A stretch of 64,000 bases of DNA from an uncultured Gammaproteobacteria bacterium. GTDB taxonomy: Bacteria > Patescibacteriota > Patescibacteriia > UBA9934. The stretch covers positions 451,053 to 515,052 of the forward strand of contig CAYVLY010000001.1 of NCBI GenBank assembly GCA_964452565.1, in the 5' to 3' direction. Below the pieces are notes generated by a model. The model saw only the letters and a list, made by a program, of their open reading frames with translations, was not told where the DNA came from and made no database searches. Shown here one piece after another: positions 12,241 to 62,882 of this stretch. Numbering within the stretch: the stretch's first letter is position 1; the number at the start of each line of letters is the position of its first letter. A program made the position numbers and the translations under genes.

Positions 12241-12355
12241 ATGTGCCAATGTTATCTTACTGGGACAAAAAAGCAAGAGTTTATATCATCATAAAAATCA
12301 TCCAGAAAAATTGACGCCCCCCGTGGGAGTTCCCAGGGAGGGCGTACAAACCGGG

Positions 12356-12598
12356 TCAGGCGATCGGTGGAGGTGTTCCGCTAGCAAGCATGGCTGAGAG
12401 CTCTGCAAGAGCTACCATATCACACATGCCACGAGGCAACTCCCAGGCATTTGGCTTTTTCCGATTCCTGTATCTTTTCCTATACAGACCCGTGGGGAGG
12501 CCAGGACAGTAGACTGGGGGCGGAATCCGAACCCCAAGCGGTGCCAAGCCGCCGGCACCGAAACTCACTTCGCGTATACACTGAACATCTACTTGCAT
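12356..12598 (-). CDS. Small basic protein (80 aa), paralog A of a two-member family in this window; conserved motif FGAGGLAPLGVRIPPPVYCP
   Basis: An AGGAG Shine-Dalgarno motif sits 6 nt before the ATG. The region is GC-rich (about 60%). The gene shares a 15-codon block with 46759..46989 in which 9 of 10 differing codons are synonymous. A GC hairpin plus T-run follows the stop at about 12300-12340. Confidence 0.55.
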   Translation of the reverse strand: MQVDVQCIREVSFGAGGLAPLGVRIPPPVYCPGLPTGLYRKRYRNRKKPNAWELPRGMCDMVALAELSAMLASGTPPPIA

Positions 12599-12912
12599 GA
12601 CAATCTCCTGTTATAGTGATTGTCCGTAAAAGCCCAAAGCTACGCGGACGCACCTGTTGTGGAGACACTCGCGTGTCCCGCACCCCTTACTCAACGCACT
12701 TTGCTGGTTTTCCACGCCAGCACCGCCTTACCGCCCGTTCCACCAGTACAGCACGGCGGCTTAGTGCACCCACTTTTACCCGGCAACGATATTCATTCTA
12801 TAGGCTCGCGTGCAATTTAAAAAATACATGTGTGGAAAACTAATAAAAAGTAAAGCACTCCGCATACGAGCGGAGCGCCGAGAGACAAGTCAGAGGAATA
12901 GCTTATGACCTG

Positions 12913-13500
12913 TTACCTACCCTTCCGGGCTAGTACCGCAACCACAAGGTGGAAGAGTGCCAGGTAGGCAGGGTTGAAGATACTAACAAAGTCACCGTTG
13001 TACGACAGTGTGGCATTCAGAAGCGTCACCAGACATGCCACTGTCCAAACCCACCACGAAAGCGGCTCATCTTTAGTTGGATCCTTGTACACATCCTTGA
13101 GCGTGGGATGAAATGAGATCACAACCGTGAGCATCATGATGAGATTCGCGGTACTGGCATCCCTGTAGTACCAGTACACCACAAACGAAAGAACGCATAG
13201 AACGAGAACAAAGATCTCGACAGAGTCAGGCCACTTGAACTTCTTCCAGCGCAAGGCCAGGATGAATGTCACTGTTGCGGCAAAACTCCCTACGATGTAC
13301 TGAAGCGCCAGAGGAAAACTCGTCACTTCAGTGAAGGTCACGGCGTTAATCGTAGCCGCAATCATCCAAATGAACCACGTAACGAACTTGGGCTTGGAGC
13401 TTCCTCTCTTCGTCTGGATGTTATAGAGGACGTAGCCGGTGGCGTGGATCAACGCCGCAGGCACACCGAGAACCCATTCAAGAAGCTGATCTTCTTGCAT
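12913..13500 (-). CDS. Hypothetical integral membrane protein with about 6 transmembrane helices; start taken at MQEDQLLEW
   Basis: Hydrophobic helices (FIWMIAATINAVTF, LALQYIVGSFAATVTFILAL, IFVLVLCVLSFVVYWYY, LIMMLTVVISF, WWVWTVACLVTLL). It lies in the insert between fusA and tuf. Confidence 0.55.
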   Translation of the reverse strand: MQEDQLLEWVLGVPAALIHATGYVLYNIQTKRGSSKPKFVTWFIWMIAATINAVTFTEVTSFPLALQYIVGSFAATVTFILALRWKKFKWPDSVEIFVLVLCVLSFVVYWYYRDASTANLIMMLTVVISFHPTLKDVYKDPTKDEPLSWWVWTVACLVTLLNATLSYNGDFVSIFNPAYLALFHLVVAVLARKGR

Positions 13501-13586
13501 TGTAACTCCCCGTACCTGGAATATTAACTCGATCCGCACCATGCGAACTTGTTAAATAACTTAACAAACCCACAAATACAGGTCAA

Positions 13587-13612
13587 TTTTGTACGCAAAA
13601 AAACCTACCAAT
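13587..13612 (-). terminator. Intrinsic terminator after fusA: stem CTACC / GGTAG followed by a T7 run on the minus strand
   Basis: Plus-strand sequence aaaaaaacctaccaattgctcggtag; read on the minus strand this is a hairpin followed by TTTTTTT, about 55 nt after the fusA stop. Confidence 0.6.
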
Positions 13613-13665
13613 TGCTCGGTAGATTTTTAAAAATCTAAATTCTAAGTTCTGTTTTCTATGTTCTA

Positions 13666-15771
<2,106 letters not shown>

Positions 15772-16856: not shown

Positions 16857-16885
16857 TTGACTTTTACGCGAAACTGGGCTATATT
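16857..16885 (+). promoter_or_regulatory. sigma70-like promoter: TTGACT, 17-nt spacer, TATATT
   Basis: ttgact tttacgcgaaactgggc tatatt, about 50 nt upstream of the TTG start at 16939. That start is preceded by AAGGAG. Confidence 0.55.
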
Positions 16886-16938
16886 GCCAGACCTCTTCAC
16901 TGATCCGCAAGGATACAACCCCATACAAGGAGACTGCC

Positions 16939-17415
16939 TTGCTCGAAACCTGGAACCTCTTCCGTACCGCCTGGTTACTGTATACACAGAGACGAAAGCG
17001 GCAAAAGCTCATCAAGAAGGGCTACAGGATCCCTCCTGCTCTGGCTGCAACTGACCTGATGAATCTCATCCAGTCCCCCTACGTCAACAACGACGTCGTA
17101 GTATCTATGTGGGAGATCTTCCACGAGGTGTGGTGCTACGAAGATGACTTCTACGCTGCTCGCGAGAAGGTCGTAAATGCTATGCGTGAGCACCGCCCCG
17201 GGTTGTTCAGGGCCATCCGACAGCGTGACGAACAACGGATGATGGCTGAGATGCTCCAGGACTTCGCAATGTTCTTCACGGCCATGGGACTCATGCCACC
17301 CGTCGTCGAAACTCACATGTTCGAGGTTCGCATGATCGTGCCCTCTCCTAACTGCGACGAATGCGGAGATCGCCACTCCTGCGGCCTGCGCCCTCGTGGC
17401 TGCGGAGAGGAATAG
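16939..17415 (+). CDS. Hypothetical protein in a GC-rich cassette, 158 aa with a TTG start and a Cys-rich C-terminus (CDECGDRHSCGLRPRGCGEE)
   Basis: The ORF has its own promoter and Shine-Dalgarno motif. Its composition is clearly more GC-rich than the flanking rpsL and S2P genes. No family was recognised. Confidence 0.5.
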   Translation: MLETWNLFRTAWLLYTQRRKRQKLIKKGYRIPPALAATDLMNLIQSPYVNNDVVVSMWEIFHEVWCYEDDFYAAREKVVNAMREHRPGLFRAIRQRDEQRMMAEMLQDFAMFFTAMGLMPPVVETHMFEVRMIVPSPNCDECGDRHSCGLRPRGCGEE

Positions 17416-17436
17416 CCTCTCCTAGACCCCCTCGCG

Positions 17437-17468
17437 TCCCGCGCCCTCACCCGGTGCGGGCGTTTTGC
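17437..17468 (+). terminator. Intrinsic terminator: GC hairpin cgccctcacccggtgcgggcg followed by TTTTGCTTT
   Basis: Read directly after the stop of 16939..17415. Confidence 0.5.
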
Positions 17469-17469
17469 T

Positions 17470-20441: not shown

Positions 20442-20984
20442 CTACAGTTCAGAAGCAAGAAAAACCCTGAACCAATTATCAGATTTGAATCTTGAAGAAA
20501 ACAACCTAGCCACATAGTCACTAATATTTTTCGAACAGCACCATACACTTCGATGCATCTGCTTAAAGCCTAATCGCTTCAATATGTGCCTAACCTGATT
20601 ACGTAGTCGTTTGTGATCCTCAGGTATATCAAATGAGATCAAACAAATCTGGCCACCTGGTAGATTATTTGCGTTCATTGAGAGCTGCGCCATATATTCC
20701 TCGAACCCTGCCTTAGAAAATGATGTTAAATACCCGTCAGCTATCTTTTTTCTATCGATTAATCTTCTTTTCTCTAACCTCCTAAATTCCTGTCTCCTTA
20801 GTTTAGCCTCTTTTCTGTCTAAGAACTCTCTTGCGCCCTCTATACCAAATCTAACCACCAACCCCGGCCTAGAAAGACCAAAGTGAACATCTTCAATAGC
20901 TTGCCCGATATCAACAAGTATTCTCGCTGTTCTAGAATGAGGTTGAAGAGGCCTTACAGCTTCATTAATTAAACGATCGTTCAT
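20442..20984 (-). CDS. Hypothetical protein whose C-terminal roughly 85 aa resemble the Cas2/VapD fold; the N-terminal roughly 95 aa are a basic helical extension (possibly a PaaX-like regulator family)
   Basis: The C-terminal half ICLISFDIPEDHKRLRNQVRHILKRLGFKQMHRSVWCC...DNWFRVFLASEL follows the Cas2 pattern (beta1-YD[IV], RRR-KV-K-L, G-R-Q-SV[FW]EC, R[IV][FY]-L). No cas1 gene or CRISPR array is in the window. Confidence 0.5.
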   Translation of the reverse strand: MNDRLINEAVRPLQPHSRTARILVDIGQAIEDVHFGLSRPGLVVRFGIEGAREFLDRKEAKLRRQEFRRLEKRRLIDRKKIADGYLTSFSKAGFEEYMAQLSMNANNLPGGQICLISFDIPEDHKRLRNQVRHILKRLGFKQMHRSVWCCSKNISDYVARLFSSRFKSDNWFRVFLASEL

Positions 20985-27907: not shown

Positions 27908-28064
27908 AGTGCATCTAGTTTATCGAAATCCGCTGAAAATGGGAAATACATATCAAGGTTAAGCCCCCGAGGTTCAACCTTGGATGCAAATCCTGCCAAA
28001 CAAAGGCTTTGACAAACCGACCTTAGTACGGCAATGTATAGCCATCCCTTTCAAACCCCTGCCC

Positions 28065-28580
28065 ATGGAGCAAAGCATGCAACATGCACAACGACCCAGT
28101 ATCTCAACCATGATCCTCGTGTCGCTCTTCGTGGTGAGCCTCGCAGTCCTTATGAGGCCCAACGACACCGAGGTAATCGAGAACGCTAGTGACGTGATGG
28201 TCGGGCCGACAGAAGAAGAACACGAGTTCGCCCACACGATCGTCGACAACAACTGCGACGGCCTCAACTGCTTCGCGTACATCGCCAGTCCGCAGGACAC
28301 GGACGATGAACTCTACGACGCAGGCTCTGATCGCGGCCGGTTCGTGCGCCTCATCACCCCACAGGGAGATGATCTCGCATTCGACATCCGCTACGGTGAC
28401 ATCTTCGTAGCGATCGACATCCTGCACTGCCGGGTCGACTCGAACTGCGGTGTGAGACCAATGCAATTCAATGAGGGGTTCGGTCTCATCTTCTACGACG
28501 CGCCCCGAGGAGATCACAAGCAGACCATGCACCCAAACGATCTGCGCTTCAGCCTAGCACCCAAAAAGGAGACGCCATGA
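28065..28580 (+). CDS. Hypothetical secreted or membrane-anchored protein in a GC-rich island; the start is uncertain (28065 or 28104) and the protein contains an HEFAH motif
   Basis: An N-terminal hydrophobic segment MILVSLFVVSLAVLM, 6 Cys, and about 60% GC. The track ORF begins at 27984. Confidence 0.45.
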   Translation: MEQSMQHAQRPSISTMILVSLFVVSLAVLMRPNDTEVIENASDVMVGPTEEEHEFAHTIVDNNCDGLNCFAYIASPQDTDDELYDAGSDRGRFVRLITPQGDDLAFDIRYGDIFVAIDILHCRVDSNCGVRPMQFNEGFGLIFYDAPRGDHKQTMHPNDLRFSLAPKKETP

Positions 28581-29002
28581 ACACTCGACACCTCATCCTC
28601 CTGATCATGACCATGCTCTCTGGCTGCTGGTGGGCTCCTTCGGCCCAAGAGGTCGAGCTGATCCGTGCGATCGACGCAGCCGGCTGCGGCTACAACCACA
28701 AGAGATGCAAGATCTACATAGATCGCCGAGAAGAGAGTGATCCTACTGTCCACCTGGAGTACTTCCGCATTGTGAGCGCGGGGTCACTACGGGCAGGAGA
28801 AGATGTCGACAAGACTTTTGAGATAGCAAAGGGCAGGATCTTTCGCGCTCTTGAAGAACTTGACTGCACGAAAGATGGCCACTGTGGGGTCCGGGTATAC
28901 GTCGTGTGCTCGAACATCGTCTACGCCAAGGTTGCTCACCCCAAGAAACAGCCCATCAACATCAACACCGGCATCGATGCTGACATGCTCAAGGAGGAAT
29001 GA
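28577..29002 (+). CDS. Hypothetical lipoprotein (lipobox LSGC) in the same GC-rich island
   Basis: MNTRHLILLIMTMLSGCWW... is a signal peptide ending in a lipobox cysteine. The protein is 141 aa and about 58% GC. Confidence 0.5.
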   Translation: MNTRHLILLIMTMLSGCWWAPSAQEVELIRAIDAAGCGYNHKRCKIYIDRREESDPTVHLEYFRIVSAGSLRAGEDVDKTFEIAKGRIFRALEELDCTKDGHCGVRVYVVCSNIVYAKVAHPKKQPININTGIDADMLKEE

Positions 29003-29004
29003 TC

Positions 29005-29118
29005 ATGCGGAGGATATGGTTCAAGTTCTGGTTCCAGGTCAACTCGAACATGCCATTGATGATCGTCATCGCACTGATCATCGCAGCTGCCTGGCTCCTG
29101 CCCTATGGCAGCCACTAG
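29005..29118 (+). CDS. Possible 37-aa single-transmembrane small protein, MRRIWFKFWFQVNSNMPLMIVIALIIAAAWLLPYGSH
   Basis: An AAGGAGG motif sits 7 nt upstream of the ATG, and the start overlaps the stop of the preceding gene. The ORF is too short for the ORF track. Confidence 0.3.
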   Translation: MRRIWFKFWFQVNSNMPLMIVIALIIAAAWLLPYGSH

Positions 29119-29291
29119 GCGTTCAATATGCCTGTCTCGCCCGCCCGCGTCCCCACCAGGACGCGGCTTCTGCTTTTCACAGAACCCAGACGCCAGACTT
29201 CAGAACCCAGAAAGGATCTTATCTGTGTTCTGTGTTCTGCCCAAGCACAAGACCCCGACGCGCGGGACGGGGTCGATAGACGGTTGAAACG

Positions 29292-31148: not shown

Positions 31149-31219
31149 GCACCTCTCCTTGTCGAATGTGCAAAAGAACGCTCCTCACCTGACCCTGTGT
31201 CAGATTTGGAGAAGATGGG

Positions 31220-31248
31220 ACTATACTTAAAATAGCAGAAATAATCAA
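31220..31248 (-). promoter_or_regulatory. sigma70-like promoter for the kinase gene: TTGATT, 17-nt spacer, TATAGT
   Basis: Read on the minus strand upstream of the strong Shine-Dalgarno motif (AAGGAG) and ATG at 31148. Confidence 0.45.
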
Positions 31249-31272
31249 GAATCGCACCCCTGGATGCGATTC
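31249..31272 (-). terminator. Intrinsic terminator after gdhA: stem GAATCGCA / TGCGATTC followed by a T-rich tract
   Basis: An 8-bp perfect stem with the loop cccctgga, then ttgattatttctgctatttt on the minus strand. Confidence 0.55.
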
Positions 31273-31290
31273 TCTGAATAATTATGTTAT

Positions 31291-32505: not shown

Positions 32506-32509
32506 ATTG

Positions 32510-32620
32510 GAGGAGGGTGATAGAGGTTATTAAGGGTAATAAGAGGTGATAGAGGTTATTAAAGGTGATGAAAGACAATAATCACTTTTTATCACCTTTT
32601 CAACCTTTAATCACTTTTGT
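32510..32620. repeat. Cluster of GGTGAT and ATCAC(C) hexamers arranged as inverted arrays, including an 18-nt direct repeat ggtgatagaggttattaa present twice, lying upstream of gdhA
   Basis: GGTGAT occurs at 32516, 32545 and 32564. ATCAC occurs at 32581, 32591 and 32610. aaaggtgat and atcaccttt are reverse complements. Confidence 0.5.
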
Positions 32621-33530: not shown

Positions 33531-33590
33531 ACGAAAGCTATTTTAGCACATGCAATCCTGGCTCCGCCATGTTTATCCACCGATTTGATC

Positions 33591-33617
33591 AAAAAAACCG
33601 ACTTTCGTCGGTTTTGT
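33591..33617. terminator. Bidirectional intrinsic terminator between trxA and trxB: ACCGAC tttc GTCGGT with A and T runs on both sides
   Basis: aaaaaaaccgactttcgtcggttttgtc. Confidence 0.55.
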
Positions 33618-33650
33618 CTGTGTTCTAGGTTCTGGCGTCTGAGTTCTGCA

Positions 33651-41141: not shown

Positions 41142-41168
41142 CATTAGCTCTAATTAATTCGATCAAAA

Positions 41169-41204
41169 CCCCCTCCATCTCCCCCTTCGAAAGGGGGAGG
41201 GGCA
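41169..41204. repeat. Hairpin repeat variant ccccctccatctcccccttcgaaagggggaggggc
   Basis: CCCCCTTCGAAAGGGGG is a palindrome, with flanking CCCTCC and GGAGGGG. Confidence 0.55.
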
Positions 41205-41720: not shown

Positions 41721-41777
41721 AGAAACACGAATCCGCGCTGCATCGCAGCGCGGGAGAAAAGATCTGGTGCCGCCAAA

Positions 41778-42233: not shown

Positions 42234-42374
42234 GGTAACGCCCCTTTCATGTTCGAACACATCACAAGTGAGGCTGATCCTCATTCGCGACTAAATAAAG
42301 GTAACAGGAAAATCGGCTTATGTAAATCGTTACAGCACAAACTCCGCCGCGTTCTCGGAACGGGCGGAGTTAGG

Positions 42375-44958: not shown

Positions 44959-45051
44959 ACCAGCCCCACCCCATCACCATCCCGAACGAAGTGAGGGATC
45001 TTCTTGAGAAGACCTCTCGCTATGCTCGAGGTGGTGTGAGGGAGGCTGGTT
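44959..45051. terminator. Long imperfect hairpin (AACCAGCC...GGCTGGTT) between the convergent 43943..44944 and proS genes; probable bidirectional terminator
   Basis: A-run before the stem and T-rich tract after it on both strands. Confidence 0.45.
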
Positions 45052-46654: not shown

Positions 46655-46758
46655 AACTTGAGTATAACAGACTAGCCTGAATTGGGTGAGATGTCAAGAA
46701 ATGCAAACCGCCTCCCATGAGGAGCATCCTCATTGGAAGGCGTGCAAGAAAGGCCGGG

Positions 46759-46989
46759 TCAGGCCACAGATATTACCCCAGATGGGACAACAACGAACAC
46801 GGTGCCAAGTCGCAAGATCCTGACTTTGCGTCGTCGCTTATAGCCCCTCCTGGGCTGTGGTCTTCTGTCACTGTAAGAGTCCCAGGCCGTGTGGCCATAA
46901 GTGGGACAGCTCATTGGTGGTGGGATTTGCACCCCAAGTGGTGCCAGACCTCCGGCGCCACAGTACTTCAGTGTTGCGAGTTGCGGCAT
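46759..46989 (-). CDS. Small basic protein (76 aa), paralog B of the GAGGLAPLGV-motif family
   Basis: GGAG sits 6 nt before the ATG and the gene is GC-rich. The protein MPQLATLKYCGAGGLAPLGVQIPPPMSCP... shares its core with 12356..12598 through synonymous changes. The conserved 3' end ctgacccgg includes the stop codon. Confidence 0.55.
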   Translation of the reverse strand: MPQLATLKYCGAGGLAPLGVQIPPPMSCPTYGHTAWDSYSDRRPQPRRGYKRRRKVRILRLGTVFVVVPSGVISVA

Positions 46990-47185
46990 TTTAGACTCCT
47001 TTGGGTTAGAAGTCCGAAATCGCTGACTCGGCGTTTTACCCCTTGTGTTTTAATTCCAGCATCTCTGCTAGAATCTGACCCGGTAACACTATCCATTATA
47101 TCGATGTATCTTGAACTCATAAAATAGATGTGTGGGTAGAAAAATGAAAAACAAAAAAACCTTAGGCAAAAACCTAGGGCTTTTT

Positions 47186-47203
47186 TGGTACACCGGGTGG
47201 GAC
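47186..47203 (-). repeat. 18-nt exact duplicate of the tRNA-Lys 3' end (tggtacaccgggtgggac), 147 nt downstream of the intact tRNA; looks like an att-site scar
   Basis: Identical to 47351-47368, with the same T-run flank. The intervening 147 nt are GC-rich. Confidence 0.7.
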
Positions 47204-47350
47204 GTCGGCCTTCGGCCTCCCAGCCTGCGTCGCTCGGAAATGCCCGAGCTCAGCTCGGTCACTTCTCTCGCTATCCTTAGCTGAACGAACCTGTACTGTG
47301 GGTTCTCGTCCTCCGCATCAAAAGAACCGCAGACGAATCTACGGTTCTTT

Positions 47351-47427
47351 TGGTACACCGGGTGGGACTCGAACCCACGACCCACTGATTAAGAGTCAGT
47401 TGCTCTAACCAACTGAGCTACCGGTGC
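47351..47427 (-). tRNA. tRNA-Lys (anticodon CTT)
   Basis: Manual fold: acceptor GCACCGG/CCGGTGT, D-stem GCTC/GAGC, anticodon stem ACTGA/TCAGT with loop CTCTTAA, T-arm GTGGG-TTCGAGT-CCCAC, discriminator A, and an encoded CCA. Confidence 0.85.
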
Positions 47428-47428
47428 C

Positions 47429-47505
47429 TGGCGCGGCGTGAGGGATTCGAACCCCCGACCTACTGGTCCGAAGCCAGTCGCTCTATCCAGCTGAGCTAAC
47501 GCCGC
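47429..47505 (-). tRNA. tRNA-Arg (anticodon TCG)
   Basis: Manual fold: acceptor GCGGCGT/ACGCCGC, D-stem GCTC/GAGC, anticodon stem ACTGG/CCAGT with loop CTTCGGA, T-arm GGGGG-TTCGAAT-CCCTC, and an encoded CCA. It is separated from tRNA-Lys by 1 nt. Confidence 0.85.
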
Positions 47506-48296: not shown

Positions 48297-48818
48297 TTAT
48301 TCTTTACTGGGTTCTGTAGTCTGTGTTCTGGATTCTGTTTTTGGCTTTGATCCTGACTCTGGCTCGTGAGATGTTTCTTTATCAACATCTTTAGTCTCAC
48401 CTTTTGCAACCATGTCGCGGAACATTGCCCCTAAAACACCGTTTACAAACTTACCTGATGCATCTCCTCCAAATGCTTTTCCAAGTTCGATTGCCTCATT
48501 AATCGCAACCTTGGCTGGGATCTTCTGATCAAACCTTAACTCATAAACCCCAAGGCGCAAAATGTTACGATCCGTGTTGGTCATCTCAGAAACCGGCCAC
48601 TCTGGAGCAAACTCAGTTAGTAGAGCATCAATGTCCTCAACATGATCGACAACATTACGGACTTGATTGCCAATATAACCCTCGTCATCAAAATCTGGGG
48701 CAAACTCTGTCTTTACATGATCGATAACATCATCAAGACGTTTTGAATCCTGTCCCTGAAAATCCCATTCAAACAAACACTGCATCACAGTTGTACGTGC
48801 TAGGTGTCGATTAGACAT
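48297..48818 (-). CDS. nusB: transcription antitermination factor NusB with a low-complexity Ser/Thr/Glu/Lys-rich C-terminal tail
   Basis: ARTTVMQCLFEWDF...RNILRLGVYEL...AINEAIELGKAFGGD matches NusB. Confidence 0.8.
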   Translation of the reverse strand: MSNRHLARTTVMQCLFEWDFQGQDSKRLDDVIDHVKTEFAPDFDDEGYIGNQVRNVVDHVEDIDALLTEFAPEWPVSEMTNTDRNILRLGVYELRFDQKIPAKVAINEAIELGKAFGGDASGKFVNGVLGAMFRDMVAKGETKDVDKETSHEPESGSKPKTESRTQTTEPSKE

Positions 48819-49305: not shown

Positions 49306-49761
49306 CTACGCCGAAGCACACATAGCGGAACGACGCGGACGGCTCGGGAGGCGCGGATGCATACCACGGCGGGCACCAACCGACTCATTGACCTCAGGCT
49401 CATCACCATTGCGACCGAAGCGAACCTTCAGATGCAAACGCAGACTCCTTGCTTGCCTGGGCAGCAAATCACGTACGGCCAAACGAATCTCTTCTTCGAG
49501 CTCCTCGCTGCCACCCCCTCCCTTGCCGCACCCGACGACCCAGTGGCCATGATTCTGGTGCAGAACAATGACTGGATCTTGATCCCTGCTGGTTTGAGGT
49601 TCAACCCTGATCTCGAAGTTGTCCTCGAACTCGGTGATCCCATCGAACAGGTCGATATGCCTTTTCAGGACACCGGCGACTGTACCCAGAACAGCGCATA
49701 CGTGTTTGGGCTTGGTACTGCCGTACTGTCTGAAGGTGAGTGTGAAAAGCTTTGTAGTCAA
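49306..49761 (-). CDS. Hypothetical protein in a GC-rich cassette (151 aa) with a TTG start preceded by AAGGAG
   Basis: A candidate promoter TTGACC, 17-nt spacer, TATTCT lies upstream at about 49850-49880 (minus strand). The gene is about 58% GC. The overlapping plus-strand ORF 49357..49839 is judged antisense. Confidence 0.45.
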   Translation of the reverse strand: MTTKLFTLTFRQYGSTKPKHVCAVLGTVAGVLKRHIDLFDGITEFEDNFEIRVEPQTSRDQDPVIVLHQNHGHWVVGCGKGGGGSEELEEEIRLAVRDLLPRQARSLRLHLKVRFGRNGDEPEVNESVGARRGMHPRLPSRPRRSAMCASA

Positions 49762-49890
49762 AGTGACTGTCTCCTTCTGCTCTCATCTGCTTGGTTTTTG
49801 TCACACACGCGTTCCGAACCGTTCAATACGCGCCTGTGAGAATAACCAAAAACCCTAAATAGGTCAAGTAGGGCTTATTGGGCTCATCAC

Positions 49891-52622: not shown

Positions 52623-53036
52623 TTATTCACTTGTTTGTTCATCTAACTCCTCTTGAGCTTGCTGCTCAGCTTCAAGCTGCTCTTGCAGTCTTGCAGCCGC
52701 CTCTTGTGCAACTGATTCAATGGCTTGACTCTCCTGATCCTCTTGCATAGCCCGCTCAGCTGCGTTTTGCGCATCAATCATCTCAACAATATTTTCAAAA
52801 TTATCAGCTACCCGTGGGAACTCCTGTTCCACCTCGCGCTGGAATGACTCTAGATCTTCTATTGTTTGAACATACTCATCTGAAAGCTCGTCACCTTCTT
52901 GAGCCATGGTGTCAGTGAATAAAGTACGCAACTGAAAGCCCCACACAATCAGCACGATCACCATCCCAACAATTACTGAAAAAATTATGAGGCGTTCTTT
53001 CTTCTTATCTTTTGTATGCATTTTCATATTACGCAC
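52623..53036 (-). CDS. Hypothetical membrane-anchored acidic coiled-coil protein
   Basis: A transmembrane helix [18 protein letters not shown] followed by a Glu/Gln-rich helical region. Confidence 0.45.
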
Positions 53037-54828: not shown

Positions 54829-54842
54829 ATGGACTTATTATA

Positions 54843-54884
54843 ACGCAGAAAGCAGAACGCAGAAAGCAGAACGCAGAAAAACTA
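54843..54884. repeat. Tandem repeat of the 14-mer cgcagaaagcagaa (about 2.7 copies) with a partially complementary right arm at 54890-54915
   Basis: cgcagaaagcagaa cgcagaaagcagaa cgcagaaaaac ... tgttccgagttctgttttctgtattctg. Confidence 0.55.
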
Positions 54885-55010
54885 AACTGTGTTCCGAGTT
54901 CTGTTTTCTGTATTCTGTAAATAAAGCACAATTCCCCGCGCCAGCCAGAGTGGCCGGGGCGGGGTTGAAGTGAGTTGTATCGCTGTTGATGTCTACAGCG
55001 ACTCGGCGTG

Positions 55011-55970
55011 CTATGCGGTCAGCCGACCTGAGCGGATGAGGTGTAGGAGCTGAAACCCTCGCTCACCAAGCAAGACGCCGCTGAGGTGCGGTAGTGCCCG
55101 TTCCAGATCTGATCCCTGCCGGCTGGCGTCATGCAGCCTAGCTTCGAGACGATCGCGACCATCTCCGAGCCTAGCAAGCGTCTTGGCTACATTGGGCACC
55201 AGCAGGAAGCTCGTACCAGCTGCCCGGAAAAGTCCCAGGTCAGTCTTGGGCGAATCACCAACACTAAGTACGCGCGGCAAAGGAATCTGCTGCTTTTGCG
55301 CCCAAAAAGCGAGCACATCCCCCTTGTTGAAGTCATGGACAACCGTTCTTGGCCAATAGCCAGAAATTTCATCGAGCCCATTCCAACTCAAGGACAACGC
55401 TCGTATGCTAAGCCGCCGATAATCTTCTGGCGTGAAAAAATGCCATGCCCACATTTCTATCGCATCCAAAAGCCCGTAGGAGGCAAACATGACCGGTTCT
55501 TCTGATGCATCCTGAGTAAGGAACGTCCTGAGGAATGTCTCAAGACCCAGACGGGGTGTGAAATCTTTGACAAGTTGCTGGAAGCTGATCTTGTCTACCT
55601 TGGCTGCAGCCAGACGGTCGACCGTGCGGAAGATCCAGTCCTCGAGCGCCTCCGGGCTATCGAACTCGCCGGCCAGATACTGACGCAGTTCGGCCAGATC
55701 AGCGTCCATGTCGACCTTGCTCATCAAGGCGCGAGTAGCGCCGAACGTCTGACCAGCATGAACCGTGCCGTCGAAGTCCAAGGCAGCGCCCTCGGCCTGC
55801 CTGACTCGCTCAAGCACCTGCTCAACCTCGGATCTCTCGAGATTCACAGCCAGAATATCTTCTTCCGGCCCAGCCCGCCCCATGAGATGGCGCAGCTCAT
55901 TGATACCTCTGAAACCAACAACCCGGAACGTATGACCATCATCCGTTTGAAAGGACATCCTGACCTCCAT
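55011..55970 (-). CDS. HAD-superfamily hydrolase-like protein in a GC-rich cassette
   Basis: ALDFDGTVH matches HAD motif I (DxDGT) and LSVGDSPKTDLG resembles motif IV. The gene is about 62% GC. Confidence 0.55.
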   Translation of the reverse strand: MEVRMSFQTDDGHTFRVVGFRGINELRHLMGRAGPEEDILAVNLERSEVEQVLERVRQAEGAALDFDGTVHAGQTFGATRALMSKVDMDADLAELRQYLAGEFDSPEALEDWIFRTVDRLAAAKVDKISFQQLVKDFTPRLGLETFLRTFLTQDASEEPVMFASYGLLDAIEMWAWHFFTPEDYRRLSIRALSLSWNGLDEISGYWPRTVVHDFNKGDVLAFWAQKQQIPLPRVLSVGDSPKTDLGLFRAAGTSFLLVPNVAKTLARLGDGRDRLEARLHDASRQGSDLERALPHLSGVLLGERGFQLLHLIRSGRLTA

Positions 55971-56052
55971 TGAAATACTGCGCCTGATTGCGCCTCAGGA
56001 TTGTTGAAACGTTAGCAAAAAAGAACCAATGGGTCAAAAAACAAATTTGTCA

Positions 56053-57468: not shown

Positions 57469-57649
57469 GTTACTGAAGAAGAGACAAAGACAGAAAAGGC
57501 AGCTGAGTAAAATCAACAGCAACAAAACCTCGTTATCTACTTACCATCTCGAGGAGCGTAGCGACGAGAGATCTTCTCAAGAAGTTTTCTCCCTACAGTC
57601 GAAATGGTGAAAGGGCGGGGTTTTGTGATTGAAAAGCCCCCACCCATGC

Positions 57650-57678
57650 TTGACAGGGAGTTGTTTTTCTGCTATCTT
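57650..57678 (+). promoter_or_regulatory. sigma70-like promoter: TTGACA, 17-nt spacer, TATCTT
   Basis: Upstream of 57717; AAAGGGA lies 7 nt before the ATG. Confidence 0.5.
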
Positions 57679-57716
57679 GCGACCTTGCCATCACTCCAAC
57701 ATGAAAGGGAACCGTC

Positions 57717-58001
57717 ATGGCAATGACCCGAAGCCCCATAGTCTTTCACTTGACCGTGCGGGTTACAGCAAGGCAACAGCAAGCAATCCGTACCGGACCT
57801 CCCCTCTGCGTCTCCCTGAAGAAGATCGTTCGTGTCGAGCGCATCAGGCACATCGACTACGAATTCGAGATCGAGCTCAGGTTCGAATTCGATGAACGCC
57901 TCGACGACGCACCCATGGTCTTCTTCACCCTCATGTCTATCCTCAGCACGGATGGCATGCCGTTTGAAGTCATCCGTATCACTGACGGAACCTCGGGCTG
58001 A
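57717..58001 (+). CDS. Hypothetical small protein (94 aa) in a GC-rich cassette
   Basis: It has its own promoter and Shine-Dalgarno motif. The overlapping antisense ORF 57672..58082 is judged spurious. Confidence 0.35.
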   Translation: MAMTRSPIVFHLTVRVTARQQQAIRTGPPLCVSLKKIVRVERIRHIDYEFEIELRFEFDERLDDAPMVFFTLMSILSTDGMPFEVIRITDGTSG

Positions 58002-58178
58002 GACGACAATCAGTCCCCTTTGGCCGTATCTGGCCTGTTCGACACCCACGACTGGGGTGTCGATTTCTTTTACTATTGACATGGTGCCTATTCCCTGCTA
58101 AGTTCCATGGCTTTCAAAGATGCGGTATGATTTGAACAAAGGTTCAATTCAGACCCCACCTTTCGAAAGGAGTGTCCC

Positions 58179-58469
58179 TTGAAGCTTGCAACCTTGACCA
58201 TCGGAGCCGCCTACTACATCCTTGGAGCAGTGTTCATCCTGCTGAGCCTCCTGCCCATGGGCGCCACGATCCTCTTCGTGGTATCTATTGTGAGACTCAC
58301 GATGAACCAAGCAATCAATGCTGATCTGATCACGACCATAGCCATCGCCTGCTCTGAGATCGGCATCATGACCATCGCCACTATAATCCTGGTCAAGTGG
58401 GCCATCGGTGTATTCAAGTGCACCAAGACACACACAGCCTGGATGCGCCACCGCCTGCAAGCACTCTAG
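58179..58469 (+). CDS. Hypothetical small membrane protein (96 aa, 3 transmembrane helices) with a TTG start
   Basis: AAAGGAG lies 6 nt before the TTG. That Shine-Dalgarno motif is embedded in a degenerate copy of the CCCC..TTCGAAAGG..GG hairpin motif. Confidence 0.4.
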   Translation: MKLATLTIGAAYYILGAVFILLSLLPMGATILFVVSIVRLTMNQAINADLITTIAIACSEIGIMTIATIILVKWAIGVFKCTKTHTAWMRHRLQAL

Positions 58470-60652: not shown

Positions 60653-60982
60653 TCAGTCGATGTTGGCGATGGGGCAAAGCACCACCGTGCCATCGATTGC
60701 CACAGCCCAACCTTCCCAGACTGTAGCGCTTTCAGTATCGCGCCAGTCGTCGAGGGGAAGGTTGGGAAGCTGATGCTCCAGCTCCACCCTCAGCTCGTCG
60801 TTCTTGCCGATTTCGTATATCTCTTCAGGGGTCAGTTCCCTGCCCCAGAGATATTCGATCATCGGAACGACGCTTTCAGATCCCTCCACATAGCAGCCAA
60901 ACACTCTAGCGATCGTCATGGGGTCAAACCCCTGGTGCGAGGCGAGAATAGCAGTAGTGGGGGTGGGGGTCGAAGCAGACAT
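60653..60982 (-). CDS. Hypothetical protein (109 aa) in a GC-rich cassette
   Basis: It is driven by copy B of the conserved promoter-leader module. The gene is about 60% GC. Confidence 0.45.
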   Translation of the reverse strand: MSASTPTPTTAILASHQGFDPMTIARVFGCYVEGSESVVPMIEYLWGRELTPEEIYEIGKNDELRVELEHQLPNLPLDDWRDTESATVWEGWAVAIDGTVVLCPIANID

Positions 60983-61084
60983 GAGGTCTCCCTTGCGGGT
61001 TCGTCAGACGAGATTGTCTAACGGTGGCCGACCTCAGTCGGACACTAAGTCGTGTGGATGCCAACCCATGCGACCATGAACATA

Positions 61085-61152
61085 CTCTTTCAATGAACAA
61101 CAGAATAATAGCACAAAAAAGCACTTTTGTCAAGAGTTTTGCTTGATTTTTG
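61085..61152 (-). repeat. Copy B of the conserved promoter-leader module (minus strand: TTGACA, 17-nt spacer, TATTAT, then GTTCATTGAAAGAGTATGTT)
   Basis: About 85% identical to 38035-38103. The -35 is at 61128-61133 and the -10 at 61105-61110. Confidence 0.6.
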
Positions 61153-61258
61153 GGCTAATTTAAAACAAAAAACTCAACCACCTATTCCTTTTATAGCGAT
61201 CTCACTATTAACTTGGATTCATGTTCCAATCTCTGACTTCTGCTATAATAAAATCACT

Positions 61259-62185
61259 ATGAAACATGAAAAAACAATAGAAAAGATTGCGCTAGTATGT
61301 TCGGTGATTCTGCTGGCAGTCTTCCTCTTCAAAGATGCTCATTGGTTCTGGGTTGACGCCTCGTTCCTATTGACTATCTTCATCCTTACAAGTCTGACAA
61401 GGACTCTAAAATGGTCCTGGGGGTTGATGACATTCTTGCAGGGTATGTTTATAAGCTTTGGTCTTACCTTTCTGTTTGGTGCTTTGATCACAGCGTTAGG
61501 TGCTGAGCCACATACTATTATTCGATCAATACTTGTTGGGCCAGCTGAAGAACTTTTCAAGCTTGTACCTGTATTAATAGCAATAGTGATATTCAAACAA
61601 TTCAGAAAACGTCCATTCAATCTTTCAGACTTTGCATTCCTTGGAGCTATGGCTGGCGGAGGCTTTAGCATGGTGGAAAAGTTCTTCTGGGAAGGAATAC
61701 ACTTCCCATTCACCTATGGACCTCACCTCGGAGATTGGTACTTGTTTGGTGACGCTCTTGGAGTCTATGCTGGCGGAGGTCAATTCGGATATATAGGCCA
61801 CGCAGCAGCAACAATGCTAATAGCAATTGGTATTGGATTTGCATGGCGACTTGCAAAGCAATACCCCGGCAAACCATGGCAGCTTATTCCGATTATTGTA
61901 TTCGCATGGGTAGCAATTGAGCACATCATTTTAAACAGCTACTATGCTGGAGCAGATGCAATTATGATTCTTGGCGGTGGAATGATAACTCCATGGATTG
62001 GACTTCTAATGTTGATCGGTGTACTGGCCTGGGACTTCTTGGATCAAAGACAACTCCTACAAGACAAGCGCTGGAAAAAGATATGGAAAAAAGCTTGGTC
62101 AATCAAATCAGTAAAGGATGTCGTGCAACTGTTTAGATTCTTACGCGTTCTCAATCTTGAAAGTTTAGACAAAGCTTACAAATAG
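61259..62185 (+). CDS. Polytopic membrane protein, possibly a PrsW-like or CPBP-like intramembrane protease; start taken at MKHEK because the upstream part of the track ORF overlaps promoter module B
   Basis: An EELFK (EExxK) motif in a transmembrane helix and downstream conserved His residues. This is pattern recognition only. Confidence 0.4.
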   Translation: MKHEKTIEKIALVCSVILLAVFLFKDAHWFWVDASFLLTIFILTSLTRTLKWSWGLMTFLQGMFISFGLTFLFGALITALGAEPHTIIRSILVGPAEELFKLVPVLIAIVIFKQFRKRPFNLSDFAFLGAMAGGGFSMVEKFFWEGIHFPFTYGPHLGDWYLFGDALGVYAGGGQFGYIGHAAATMLIAIGIGFAWRLAKQYPGKPWQLIPIIVFAWVAIEHIILNSYYAGADAIMILGGGMITPWIGLLMLIGVLAWDFLDQRQLLQDKRWKKIWKKAWSIKSVKDVVQLFRFLRVLNLESLDKAYK

Positions 62186-62189
62186 TCAT

Positions 62190-62501
62190 ATGGAAATATT
62201 AGAACTAATCGATTTAGTCGGTGCATTCCTCGACGGACACGCTGCATCACAAGGTAGTGGCGGAACATTGGCAGGAATCCTTGGAATATCACTTGGTGGC
62301 GCTGGTGGTTTCAGCTTTCACAGAGCAGCAGCCACCTATGTCGATCCAGATCATCCGCTGGCATATGGCAAGTCCACACCCGCCGAACCAATACCAAAAT
62401 CACACCACGACCCACGCATTGATGCACTTTGGCGCGGAGAGCAACCAACTACTCTCGCTGATATAGCTGAAGCGGCTCGAGAAAGCGGGGCAATAAAATA
62501 A
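62190..62501 (+). CDS. Hypothetical Gly-rich protein (103 aa)
   Basis: An ORF followed by the terminator AGAAGCGC aaac GCGCTTCT plus a T-run at 62510-62540. Confidence 0.4.
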   Translation: MEILELIDLVGAFLDGHAASQGSGGTLAGILGISLGGAGGFSFHRAAATYVDPDHPLAYGKSTPAEPIPKSHHDPRIDALWRGEQPTTLADIAEAARESGAIK

Positions 62502-62703
62502 TGGACATAAAAAAGAAGCGCAAACGCGCTTCTTTTCTCATCTTAGCCACACTGCGAGCACGTTCATGCTTATCCCCGGGCAGGAGAACGGAATAGCATT
62601 TTGCGTGACATTTATCCATATAAACAAATGGAGCTCAAAATGCCCGTTTGTATGTCAGGGGTAATGCATGGACAGCGCAGCACTGTGGCTAGCAGTTTCT
62701 TTT

Positions 62704-62788
62704 CCCCATTTCTTTGCTGCTTCAAAGAAATGGGGCCCTGGGCCTGCCTGCCGGCAGGCAGGGGTTTGGGGGACGGAGTCGCCCCCAA
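62704..62788. repeat. Three consecutive GC-rich hairpins: a 13-bp perfect stem CCCCATTTCTTTG/CAAAGAAATGGGG, a 20-bp perfect palindrome CCTGCCTGCCGGCAGGCAGG, and TTGGGGGAC ggag TCGCCCCCAA
   Basis: Read directly. The cluster is intergenic and lies upstream of the -10 box (TATAAT at 62848-62853) of the next gene. Confidence 0.55.
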
Positions 62789-62882
62789 GGAGTTATCGAG
62801 ATTCAAAAGATCCCTCGACTTTGCTCGGGATGGGTTAGTGCTACATTTTTTGCTATAATAACAACGATATTAACAAGGAGGT

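Follow-up and report, generated by a model that had tools for sequence, protein, structure and literature searches.

Short GC-rich segments between conserved core genes of a Uhrbacteria-like CPR genome, and what lies in the same gaps in its relatives

The window analysed here, a 64-kb stretch of DNA, has a GC content of 45.7%. Twelve segments noted earlier as GC-rich reach 55.1% when pooled, against 43.9% for the remainder. Set against 276 stretches of 400 nt taken from core DNA alone (mean 0.443, sd 0.027, maximum 0.522), 11 of the 12 lie at 52–61% GC versus 44% in the core, with z values of 2.7 to 6.0. The GC-rich observation itself is confirmed. The dozen segments between core genes of the preliminary description are reduced to these 11: the last, at 62500-62860 (0.49, z 1.7), is not a clear member of the set and contains no convincing gene, its ORFs lacking codon periodicity. 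The values given for each segment (55–66%) and for core genes (about 40%) need correction to 0.49–0.61 and about 44%, respectively. Cassette DNA also departs from the core in dinucleotide signature, with a delta* of 86 for a null of 27 ± 9. The features are as follows.

11857-12276, minus strand: Phd/YefM-like gene of native composition (GC 0.43, GC3 0.39), within the tuf-fusA insert
12300-12700, plus strand: cassette 1, GC-rich non-coding element, paralogue of 46680-47110
12913-13542, minus strand: gene A, predicted 209-aa multi-pass membrane protein, GC3 0.63; promoter 13558-13586
16857-17469, plus strand: cassette 2, with promoter (16857-16885), gene B (16939-17415) and hairpin region (17416-17469)
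27984-29166, plus strand: cassette 3a, operon of C, D and a 39-aa peptide; terminator 29145-29166
27984-28580, plus strand: gene C, TM anchor, GC3 0.71
28577-29002, plus strand: gene D, lipoprotein-like signal LSGC, GC3 0.68
28999-29118, plus strand: 39-aa hydrophobic peptide, GC3 0.85
29292-31148, minus strand: cassette 3b, predicted 618-aa Ser/Thr protein kinase with one TM segment (residues 369-399)
31220-31248 and 29252-29268, minus strand: promoter-like signal and terminator, respectively, flanking the kinase gene
33990-34489, minus strand: cassette 4a, transcription unit of GC 0.60; promoter 34461-34489 (TTGACA-17-TACATT)
34505-35069, plus strand: cassette 4b, with promoter (34505-34533) and gene F (34578-35069, 163 aa)
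37296-38120, minus strand: cassette 5, complete 826-bp unit; promoter 38052-38080, terminator 37383-37404
37441-37941, minus strand: gene G, 166 aa, 34 D+E versus 10 K+R, GC1/2/3 of.68/.37/.81
41733-42284, minus strand: cassette 6, gene H (41778-42284), 168 aa, signal-peptide-like N-terminus, GC3 0.61
46680-47110, plus strand: cassette 7, conserved non-coding element adjoining tRNA-Lys and tRNA-Arg; terminator 47160-47179
49306-49867, minus strand: cassette 8, with promoter (49839-49867) and ORF J (49306-49761, 151 aa)
55011-55970, minus strand: cassette 9, gene L, 319 aa, putative divergent HAD-superfamily hydrolase; promoter 56009-56037
57650-58469, plus strand: cassette 10, two plus-strand units
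57650-57678 (promoter) and 57717-58001 (94-aa ORF, periodicity.55/.40/.71), plus strand: cassette 10, unit 1
58076-58104 (promoter) and 58179-58469 (96-aa hydrophobic ORF, periodicity.46/.41/.74), plus strand: cassette 10, unit 2
60653-61133, minus strand: cassette 11, gene O (60653-60982), 109 aa, acidic, GC3 0.66; promoter 61105-61133
62502-62882, no strand: segment 12, intergenic, GC 49%, z = 1.7

In most segments, a promoter, RBS, ORF and terminator together make up a complete unit. Promoters of the form TTGAC-N17-TAnnnT precede A, B, F, G, L and O, and further ones are found within cassettes 8 and 10 and the 34000-34490 unit; hairpins with a T-run stand 3′ of G, H, the kinase, the C-D operon and the RNA-like element. 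Both kinds of signal, claimed beforehand, are thereby found at several cassettes. The 5′ regulatory parts have 41–49% GC, their ORFs 51–62%, and longer non-coding stretches within the slots 53–57%. Most of the encoded proteins have no known family; a HAD-like hydrolase and a Ser/Thr kinase stand beside small secreted, membrane or acidic proteins, and two segments carry a conserved RNA-like non-coding element in place of a gene. The insert said to split the fusA-tuf pair is real: 1977 bp separate tuf (10510-11688) from fusA (13666-15771).

Within this insert, the Phd/YefM-like gene is also called in an independent assembly and matches PF02604 weakly (E 7.6e-6, 26.1 bits versus a gathering cut-off of 29.8); no toxin-like neighbour was found beside it. 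Gene A has three TM-like segments, a TTGACC-17-TAAGTT promoter and a distant homologue in a relative (orf196 of L087; tblastn E 7e-6) that is AT-rich and occupies a different slot. Gene B (158 aa, 5 Cys, GC1/2/3 of.58/.39/.71) is followed by a terminal hairpin region of 72% GC and has no family in Pfam, PADLOC, PHROGs or NCBIfam. Gene C shares 50% identity (local alignment) with orf227 of L087, found in the same place beside LeuRS, and D is weakly similar to orf227 and orf195. In cassette 4a, with a hairpin and T-run near 34020-34065, a 41-aa ORF is possible at 34211-34336 (GC3 0.86, GGAG 10 nt upstream); a 136-aa plus-strand ORF was rejected on its non-coding periodicity (.62/.70/.55). Gene F is 25% identical to orf162 of L084, which sits in the same position beside trx with a GC3 of 0.66 versus 0.26–0.38 in the core. 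AGGAG lies in the 111-nt leader of the G unit, one edge of which is formed by an 80-nt repeat (37296-37376); the AF2 model of G was unusable, with a pLDDT of 36.7. Gene H carries a TM-like or signal segment at residues 22-40 and a terminator at 41733-41753 (9 pairs, 8 of them GC). ORF J starts with TTG, 8 nt after AAGGAG; an antisense ORF (49357-49839) leaves doubt as to which strand is coding. AAAGGAG precedes the 96-aa ORF of cassette 10, whose minus-strand ORFs are probably antisense shadows. The promoter of O (TTGACA-17-TATTAT) has 47 nt in common with that of G at 81%.

Two products fall into recognisable enzyme superfamilies. The catalytic domain of the protein encoded at 29292-31148, matched by Pkinase PF00069 (E 1.2e-42, residues 16-260), marks it as a Hanks-type Ser/Thr kinase. 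Its best full-length relative, 34% identical over 98% of the length, belongs to a 71% GC MAG; it reaches at most 46% identity to anything, and its other top matches come from GC-rich taxa. The PADLOC PD-T4-6 models also match it (PDLC04061, E 5e-77, profile positions 11-478 of 510), which is a lead only, because such models match many ordinary kinases. The kinase is absent from its slot in L084, L087 and L095.

Gene L itself has no Pfam match, but PF12710 is matched by 24 of the 38 members of its family. The motifs DFDGT, K216 and GDxPTD (D239/D244) are invariant or nearly so in the 38 sequences, and gene L carries motif I, the motif III Lys and the motif IV acidic residues of the HAD superfamily. 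Among 1.84 billion representatives, 40 remote homologues were found; all family members have more R than K, most of them far more. Homologues occupy the same locus in L094 (33% identity; GC3 0.63 versus 0.29–0.36 in the core) and L097 (31%; 0.76 versus 0.61). The gene tree is incongruent with the species relationship, the L094 allele being nearer to other clusters (40%) than to the window allele, and 33% identity at a dS of about 1 would imply a dN/dS of about 1 for an enzyme. Together, these two points favour allele replacement over divergence in situ.

The non-coding element of cassette 7 is probably a structured RNA. It retains 70% nucleotide identity with L084, mismatches being even over codon phases (45/125, 40/124 and 38/123), and the L084 copy has stops in all frames; 15 base pairs persist although both partners have changed, and a long-range helix of 10 bp is predicted. 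The cassette 1 copy scores E 3.7e-73 by nhmmer against a three-sequence profile, a figure that is partly circular because the profile includes that copy; collinear motifs, a 56-nt block at 73% and hairpins in common support the relationship independently. The sole ORF in the cassette 1 element (12356-12598) shows no coding periodicity (GC1/2/3 of.62/.54/.51). Rfam 15 gave no match at gathering score or E ≤ 1 over the whole window, nor at E ≤ 10 over a 661-nt stretch, and ARAGORN found no tmRNA in the window. The element is absent at its locus in L094.

Codon usage sets the cassette genes apart as the GC content does. Once GC3 and codon usage were computed, the cassettes remained outliers: median GC3 is 0.35 in r-proteins, 0.39 in other core genes and 0.62 (range 0.47–0.81) in cassette ORFs (cassette vs core, Mann-Whitney p = 9e-8). 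The GC excess consists mainly of more C-ending and fewer A-ending codons, with R in place of K. Core genes avoid NNC codons (CCC.05, TCC.04, GCC.08); cassettes use TTC at.76, TAC at.76 and ATC at.72, and Lys falls from 8.2% in the core to 3.1%. The C-over-G excess in cassettes is specific to the coding strand. Codon periodicity is strong (GC2 lowest, GC3 up to 0.81) in A, B, C, D, G, H, L, O and the kinase; in G, the gap between GC3 and GC2 is about 8 standard errors. Within the core, A3 is.345 in r-proteins versus.256 in other genes, and r-protein GC3 is lower (p = 3.6e-4), a gradient that indicates codon selection for A-ending codons.

We compared the 64 kb with seven short loci of relatives (labelled L083, L084 and so on). 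ORFans lie there in the same gaps between core operons, an architecture seen in unrelated samples. L, C/D and F are common to relatives, with C, F and L represented at the same loci by very divergent homologues; each of G, cassettes 7 and 8, H, the kinase and cassettes 10 and 11 is lacking from one relative or more, or has something else in its place there. The G unit and cassette 8 are missing from sisters and strain-specific, and the sisters also differ at cassette 7 and the H slot, in keeping with the expectation of strain-variable cassettes. In L083, whose IF-2 is 90% identical, 43 bp replace the 826-bp G unit and a terminator is directly followed by the IF-2 promoter; its H slot contains a PALP-family gene of native GC instead. 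At cassette 8, the window is longer than L094 by about 660 bp; in L094, the gyrA terminator directly adjoins the rpmF promoter. In L097, just 183 bp separate S1 from FtsH at the cassette 10 slot, and cassette 11 is absent: FtsH is followed, after 52 bp, by a homologue of 62883-63872.

The compositional offset is found across these loci. ORFans exceed their own core by about 10–14 GC points in relatives of 42–44% GC and in those of 53–54% GC alike; in the latter, they reach 61–68% GC with GC3 up to 0.90. The GC3 of ORFans versus core is.59 vs.31 in L084,.68 vs.35 in L087,.63 vs.35 in L094,.78 vs.62 in L095 and.76–.85 vs.61 in L097. At four-fold sites, core genes diverge from those of near sisters by 0.43–0.56, with 0.63 in the short x225 gene; the value for L087 is 0.65, and saturation lies at about 0.68. 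Despite such near-saturated synonymous sites, C and orf227 keep GC3 values of.71 and.68, and the excess of L is kept in three lineages. The same pattern at the same places argues for an old feature of the lineage rather than recent DNA from a high-GC host.

The organism is not the Saccharibacteria-like epibiont first suggested. IF-2 matches of 66–72% identity are named Candidatus Uhrbacteria or Patescibacteria group, the closest named relatives (about 72%) being Candidatus Uhrbacteria; Saccharibacteria loci reach just 40–43%. Nor did a high-GC partner emerge from our searches, thorough at donor level for four cassette proteins. Ten cassette proteins looked up among 15 billion are singletons or members of pairs, except B, which is not on record, and the cassette proteins have no close viral relatives. 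Of the preliminary interpretation, there stand the compositional outliers, their self-contained form, their mostly unassigned families and the variability of several; the Saccharibacteria-like identity, a donor and, for several cassettes, acquisition find no support.

We now propose, with about an even chance of being right, that the segments mark variable slots, present throughout the clade, whose accessory genes turn over fast and persistently keep a non-adapted, C-ending codon usage. The GC-rich segments would make up the accessory genes of this Uhrbacteria-like CPR genome, and the slots would be gaps of fixed position, each running from the terminator of a conserved operon to the promoter of the following one. 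Most units would be autonomous: a sigma-70 promoter of native type and an RBS would serve one or two short ORFs, and an intrinsic terminator would close the unit. Units would be gained, lost or swapped for very divergent alleles, probably by recombination in the conserved flanks; the lineage encodes ComEC and a pilin-like protein. The GC excess would then be an old trait that genes of this class show throughout the clade, rather than the trace of a donor: translational selection may hold core genes at A/U-ending codons, and rarely used, fast-evolving accessory genes, free of such selection, may have a composition that is GC-richer and non-adapted. True imports from outside the clade would be few, namely the kinase and perhaps G. 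To judge by signal peptides, TM segments and the folds of the kinase and the HAD protein, the products may act at the cell surface, be secreted, or take part in signalling or possibly in defence.

Several points weigh against this explanation. A GC-rich neutral point is undemonstrated, since the short spacers between core genes are AT-rich (0.30–0.46), and the GC3 of G, B and C (.71–.81) exceeds any plausible neutral value seen here. Codon selection that shifts all core genes is unexpected in a slow-growing organism with a tiny genome; the strand-specific C-over-G excess also fits foreign codon usage. Gene 52623-53036, inside a core operon, evolves fast (51% identity to its L094 homologue) yet is not GC-rich. 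The L tree and its dN/dS fit poorly as well.

An assembly or binning chimera, in which reads of a GC-rich organism were mixed into an AT-rich genome, has nothing in its favour beyond the compositional contrast and can practically be dismissed. Independent Logan contigs from two runs and a different assembler (SRR8146440, SRR8146441) match window 29181-41194 at 100% identity along 12,014 bp, and one also covers murA-M50-S12-S7-fusA-A-Phd-like-tuf; the junction check is thus passed at 100% identity for cassettes 1, 2, 4 and 5 and one edge of 3, which is not the mark of an artefact. Moreover, the compositional switches coincide with promoters and terminators, and relatives from unrelated samples share the architecture. 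We also find it improbable that the islands are mainly non-coding, as structured RNAs or transcribed GC-rich DNA whose ORFs are low-stop by-products or young de novo genes. Cassettes 1 and 7, with compensatory base pairs and no coding periodicity, agree with this, as do the 33990-34489 unit, cassette 8 and segment 12, devoid of a convincing long ORF, and the frequent overlapping antisense ORFs; the strong periodicity of nine genes, the enzyme superfamilies of L and the kinase and the protein-level homologues of C, F and L do not.

Two further explanations involve foreign DNA. Repeated, recent piecemeal uptake between core genes from a high-GC partner or host, such as an actinobacterium, draws on the divergent composition and dinucleotide signature, the strain-specific G with its GC3 of 0.81, the GC-rich relatives of the kinase and the presence of competence genes. 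It accords badly with cassette proteins lacking donor-level similarity (34–46% at best for the kinase), with the resident-type promoters and 5′ regions, with the Uhrbacteria affiliation and with an L family whose members turned up on no other than small CPR-type contigs, among them contigs with the lengths of those that carry this clade's IF-2 (579,396 and 48,956 bp). The same-locus homologues of L, C/D and F, which share the GC excess, are what the preliminary description had itself named as evidence against acquisition, and we judge recent uptake to be a poor prospect. Continuous turnover fed by GC-richer genomes, whether from the same candidate phylum or from GC-rich bacteria not yet sampled, deserves more weight, although we still hold it to be rather unlikely. 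Alleles would be replaced faster than they are ameliorated, so every resident ORFan would be a fairly recent arrival. The numbers 36 to 58 in the names of Candidatus Uhrbacteria genomes are presumably GC percentages by naming convention. These names (NCBI taxonomy) are consistent with such turnover, as are the clean presence/absence and replacement polymorphisms, the incongruent L tree with its divergence implausibly high for vertical descent, the A family being AT-rich in L087 and GC-rich here, and a GC3 spectrum of 0.47–0.81 that could reflect age. Against it, the 61–68% GC ORFans of the 53–54% GC relatives require donors of at least 65% GC, and neither a clade member nor a non-CPR carrier of the L family with such a composition was seen. 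Genes always residing in some CPR genome should still ameliorate, and the flanks, at 73–81% nucleotide identity between lineages, are rather divergent for homologous recombination.

The proposed variable slots have counterparts among known systems. Oliveira, Touchon and Rocha reportedly described hot spots, or flexible genomic islets, where accessory genes cluster at few conserved intergenic sites. The slots share their fixed positions between core genes, variable content and short genes of unknown function, and mobility genes would be unneeded if exchange occurs by homologous recombination in the flanks. They differ in being very small (0.5–3.3 kb, 1–3 genes), very dense (about 12 in 50 kb, the longest contig of the genome measuring about 0.71 Mb) and GC-richer than the core; accessory DNA is usually AT-richer. 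Like bacterial ORFans, the genes are short, fast-evolving, without homologues and poorer in optimal codons. Across 4,644 gut species, orphan GC follows conserved-gene GC nearly one for one (0.45 vs 0.46, Rho 0.96; PMC11293555), and prokaryote ORFans average 3.9% lower GC and 12.5% lower GC3, with higher values in some species only (PMC4706650). In contrast, the offset here is +10–14 GC points and +0.2–0.4 GC3 in every relative examined.

Horizontally acquired islands with amelioration, the model of Lawrence and Ochman as cited in PMC11293555, have in common with the slots the atypical composition and codon usage and the patchy presence among relatives. Unlike them, the slots have native promoters and same-locus homologues that keep their GC excess at near-saturated synonymous sites; mobility genes (no integrase or transposase Pfam domains in the ORFs scanned), att sites or flanking direct repeats, and a donor were not found. 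Integron gene cassettes are likewise short, mostly single-gene units of unknown function, but the units here are dispersed, on both strands, each with its own promoter. No integrase occurs among the ORFs screened, no repeat family is common to cassette boundaries, and unit ends share no attC-like repeat or imperfect inverted repeat; an integron array of promoterless, co-oriented cassettes was therefore rejected. A 33-nt copy of the tRNA-Lys 3′ end, at 47171-47203, is the sole hint of an att-like repeat.

The window has a GC content of 45.7%; its 12 GC-rich segments, pooled, reach 55.1% and the remainder 43.9%. Against 400-nt windows of core sequence only (mean 0.443, sd 0.027, maximum 0.522), 11 segments lie at 0.516-0.606, equivalent to z = 2.7-6.0. 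The last one, at 62500-62860, has a GC of 0.49 and is not convincing as a member of the set. The preliminary description had put the contrast at 55-66% against 40%: the pattern holds, but these figures overstate it.

Third codon positions carry most of the contrast. Median GC3 is 0.35 in ribosomal-protein genes (n = 21), 0.39 in other core genes (n = 33) and 0.62 in the cassette ORFs (n = 12, range 0.47-0.81; Mann-Whitney p = 9e-8). The 5′ regulatory parts of the cassettes have resident composition (0.41-0.49), and the GC excess sits in ORFs and terminator hairpins. No known RNA gene accounts for the peaks, since only tRNA-Lys and tRNA-Arg (47351-47505) were detected in the window. Assembly chimerism is excluded as the source of the pattern: Logan contigs of two runs are 100% identical to the window over 29181-41194 (12,014 bp), and such contigs likewise cover murA-M50-S12-S7-fusA-A-Phd-like-tuf, where A is a cassette gene.

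Most segments are complete expression units, each filling the gap that separates a conserved operon's terminator from the promoter of the operon after it. The unit of cassette gene G shows this most clearly.

The G unit, in order along the minus strand
5′ side, minus strand: stop of the pilin-like gene, then a hairpin with TTGACA in its loop
Promoter and leader, minus strand: TTGACA-17 nt-TATTCT, then a 111-nt leader with AGGAG
Gene G, minus strand: acidic ORF of 166 aa, GC1/2/3 =.68/.37/.81
3′ side, 37383-37404, minus strand: hairpin and T-run, then the IF-2 promoter

Strict TTGAC-N17-TAnnnT sites were found upstream of genes A, B, F, G, L and O and of the GC-rich unit 33990-34489 (minus), with additional ones inside cassette 8 (minus) and cassette 10 (two, plus). 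Because of the sites in cassette 10, we reassign it to a pair of ORFs on the plus strand, 57717-58001 and 58179-58469, of which the latter is hydrophobic and preceded by a good RBS. The promoters of G and O (38051-38097 and 61104-61150) have 47 nt in common at 81% identity, with the −35 box carried in the loop of a terminator-like hairpin; the two genes are unrelated, and the shared stretch suggests a reusable promoter/terminator module.

Predicted products of the cassette genes
12913-13542: A, multi-pass membrane protein
16939-17415: B, Cys-containing protein
27984-28580 and 28577-29002: C, TM-anchored, and D, lipoprotein-like, in one operon with a 39-aa hydrophobic peptide
37441-37941 and 60653-60982: G and O, acidic proteins
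41778-42284: H, signal-peptide protein

Apart from a kinase gene, no cassette product matched Pfam, NCBIfam, PHROGs or PADLOC. Viral-contig scans with G, L, C and the kinase returned no relatives, and a metagenome scan with A gave no match in a collection that evidently lacks JGI contig L084. A single-sequence AlphaFold model of G had a pLDDT of 36.7, too low for use.

We compared the DNA around IF-2 and around the L homologues in seven relatives. Core synteny is kept, and the variation falls in identical gaps.

Content of the gaps in the window and in relatives' contigs (L083 to L097; orf and x numbers are ORFs on contigs)
Pilin-like gene to IF-2: window, G unit, 826 bp; L083, 43 bp; L084, non-coding hairpin repeats over 435 bp; L095, an unrelated ORFan (62% GC)
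IF-2 to trx: window, F and the 33990-34489 unit; L084, three ORFans, among them one with 25% identity to F; L087, two other ORFans
GDH to LeuRS: window, kinase, D and C; L087, orf195 and orf227, without the kinase; L084 and L095, other ORFans
HU to MFS: window, H; L083, a PALP gene of native GC
RNase Y to TruB: window, empty; L087, an ORFan of 306 aa and 59% GC
gyrA to rpmF: window, cassette 8; L094, absent
tRNAs to orf63: window, RNA-like element (cassette 7); L084, present; L094, absent
Upstream of S1: window, L; homologues in L094 (33% identical) and L097 (31%)
S1 to FtsH: window, cassette 10; L097, empty
FtsH to x329: window, cassette 11 and neighbours; L097, empty

The G unit and cassettes 7 and 8 are clean-edged indels, and the H slot differs in gene content from genome to genome. 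C and orf227 of L087 are 50% identical in local alignment. As the window contains genes for ComEC and a pilin-like protein, turnover of the slots by uptake and recombination is plausible.

In all relatives examined, the GC3 of the ORFans lies above that of their own core.

GC3 of ORFans and core genes in relatives
L084: ORFans.59, core.31
L087: ORFans.68, core.35
L094: L homologue.63, core.35
L095 (54% GC genome): ORFans.78, core.62
L097 (53.5% GC): ORFans.76-.85, core.61

The shift is in every case chiefly a rise in C3 and a fall in A3; in the AT-rich lineages C3 goes from ~.10-.18 to.30-.53. It follows the coding strand whichever way the gene is oriented. At four-fold sites, core genes of the window differ from those of L083, L084 and L094 by 0.43-0.56 (0.63 for the short x225 gene) and from those of L087 by 0.65, saturation for this composition being ~0.68. 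Under a simple two-state relaxation model, a gene acquired before the split of the window from L087, even from a donor of 95% GC3, would have relaxed to a GC3 of ~0.47 or lower by now. C and orf227 stand above this expectation, at 0.71 and 0.68, and L retains its excess in three lineages. The preliminary description, which proposed repeated acquisition, itself took orthologues of shared composition at the same loci across the lineage as the mark of an ancestral feature; judged by that standard, several cassettes are ancestral features and not recent acquisitions.

We tentatively propose, as a possibility well short of probable, that the variable-slot genes of this CPR clade form a separate compositional class, 10-14 GC points above the genome (42-54% GC), using C-ending codons that the core avoids. 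The class would be maintained through synonymous saturation by a gene-class-specific force, such as selection for poorly decoded codons (a translational throttle) or expression-tied strand-specific mutation, and two of the islands would in addition hold paralogous copies of a structured RNA, ~400 nt long and not described before.

Codon selection for A/U endings does exist here, as follows from the A3 of ribosomal-protein genes (.345, against.256 in the remaining core genes of that strand) and from the strong avoidance of NNC in four-fold boxes by core genes. Ribosomal-protein GC3 is also below that of other core genes (p = 3.6e-4). The cassettes are the unadapted end of this axis. A picture in which codon selection draws the core towards AT and leaves accessory genes behind fits these data, as well as the 53-57% GC of the longer non-coding stretches within the slots. 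However, the short spacers are rich in AT, the values of G, B and C lie beyond any neutral one observed here, and selection of such strength is unexpected for this type of organism.

The main rival to this picture is import that outpaces amelioration; it requires a reservoir of at least 65% GC, and none was seen. GC-biased gene conversion is unlikely as the sole cause, because the excess of C over G is bound to the coding strand in both orientations and the flanking ends of core genes are not GC-enriched. Mutagenesis by a diversity-generating retroelement was also rejected: the screened ORFs include no reverse transcriptase, the repeat scan gave no template repeat, and the bias spans whole genes.

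L (55011-55970) is a predicted HAD-superfamily hydrolase. It has no Pfam match itself; its 40 remote homologues have DFDGT, K and GDxPTD motifs in common, and PF12710 is matched by 24 of 38 family members. Arginine exceeds lysine in every member and far exceeds it in most. The L-family clusters lie on contigs with the same lengths as contigs that bear IF-2 in this clade (579,396 and 48,956 bp), and on no large genome. GyrA is 91% identical between the window and L094, L only 33%, and the L allele of L094 shares up to 40% with other L clusters. At dS ~1, an identity of 33% would imply dN/dS ~1 for an enzyme, which makes replacement by old divergent alleles more likely than divergence in place.

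The kinase is of Hanks type with one TM segment, and was seen in the window alone, not in the relatives' loci compared. The closest relative over the full length, at 34% identity, comes from a MAG of 71% GC. The gene (29292-31148, minus) matches PADLOC models of PD-T4-6, a kinase-type anti-phage defence, almost end to end (E 5e-77); such models match many kinases, so that we treat this as a lead only.

Two segments are not protein-coding.

46680-47110, plus strand: RNA-like element, with its own terminator at 47160-47179
12300-12700, plus strand: shorter paralogue of it, within the fusA-tuf insert

The longer element is 70% identical to positions 340-790 (minus) of the sister contig L084, with mismatches even over the three codon phases and stops in every frame of the L084 copy. 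Fifteen base pairs are preserved between the two through changes on both sides, including a 10-bp long-range helix, GCCGGGTCAG/CTGACCCGGY, that closes the element. Rfam and ARAGORN gave no family match, and we regard these two paralogues and one orthologue, in one sister, as a candidate new structured RNA of ~400 nt. RNase P RNA had been suspected by eye for 46680-47110 (GAAAGGCCGGG ... CTGACCCGG); Rfam models lend this no support even at E<=10. The candidate lacks codon periodicity. A 32-nt degenerate motif of the element occurs in JGI contig L084; a scan for it in the metagenome collection that evidently lacks this contig gave no match. Nearby, a second copy of the tRNA-Lys 3′ end with its CCA (47171-47203 against 47336-47368, 88% identity) lies 165 nt downstream and may have been left by an ancient integration at this tRNA.

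The IF-2 relatives, at 90, 85, 84, 79, 77 and 72% identity, are, where named, Candidatus Uhrbacteria or Patescibacteria group, and Saccharibacteria loci reach 40-43% among the matches listed (all <=47%). The suggestion of a Saccharibacteria-like epibiont on an actinobacterial host is therefore without basis. An exact look-up of S12 returned the same genome alone and one of EF-Tu gave no record, so that neither added a sister.

In their way of working, the slots resemble chromosomal integration hot spots or flexible islets, here in miniature and at high density. They fail the tests for classical genomic islands, as no mobility genes, att repeats or donor were found, and those for integrons, since attC is lacking and every unit carries a promoter of its own. 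Orphans of gut species have a GC equal to that of the genome (PMC11293555), and ORFans are AT-richer on average, with higher GC3 in some species only (PMC4706650). The ORFans here depart from this rule in being GC-richer than the core; the proposed class, if real, would be its reverse.

CPR bacteria have tiny genomes with a large share of genes without known function. The window locates lineage-specific genes in plug-in units with native promoters, set in terminator-to-promoter gaps, and these genes keep GC-rich, non-adapted codon usage in all relatives examined. If this were genome-wide, composition alone would mark the accessory, probably host-interaction, gene set of these genomes. It would also caution against taking GC-rich islands in CPR genomes for host-derived DNA or bin contamination, and offer a test case for the upkeep of base-composition differences inside one genome.

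Several repeat families occur in the window. Tandem heptads (CAGAANN)n lie at 1789-1821, 13640-13665, 29180-29239, 33616-33648, 48305-48344 and 54839-54917 (22 matches, 0.17 expected by chance), mostly in sense orientation right after the stops of fusA, trx, the D operon, the kinase and L, or at the 3′ ends of nusB and the S5 ORF. Shared with the nearest sisters L083 and L087 and missing from more distant relatives, they may be a 3′-UTR or termination signal. An 81-nt inverted repeat pair (1634-1714 and 37296-37376) is 73% complementary; its second copy sits precisely on the edge of the G-cassette indel, immediately upstream of the IF-2 promoter. A long-hairpin element of ~56-100 nt with the core CTTCTTGAGAAGAYCTCTCG (44964-45019, 57565-57620; L087 4522-4570) occupies the edge of cassette 10 and the ends of convergent genes. 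Short CCCCTCC...GGAGGGG hairpins occur at 39098-39118, 41109-41129 and 41167-41201, the last matched in variable slots of sisters (L084 8816-8849 and 17184-17218; L087 4444-4477), and resemble a small family of dispersed terminators or REP-like elements.

The IF-2 gene appears leaderless: its −10 box, TATTCT, ends 6 nt 5′ of the ATG, in sisters alike (window 37259-37293; L083 5791-5830; L084 9155-9193). At 20442-20984 (minus), a gene of core composition contains a central domain of Cas2-like or PaaX type (PF20803, E 1.9e-10; PF09827, E 1.3e-5); neither a CRISPR array nor further cas genes lie near it. Finally, the S5 ORF (1621-2385, minus) has an unusual length of 254 aa; both the heptads and the 81-nt repeat overlap it at the 3′ end, so the true gene may be shorter than the ORF.
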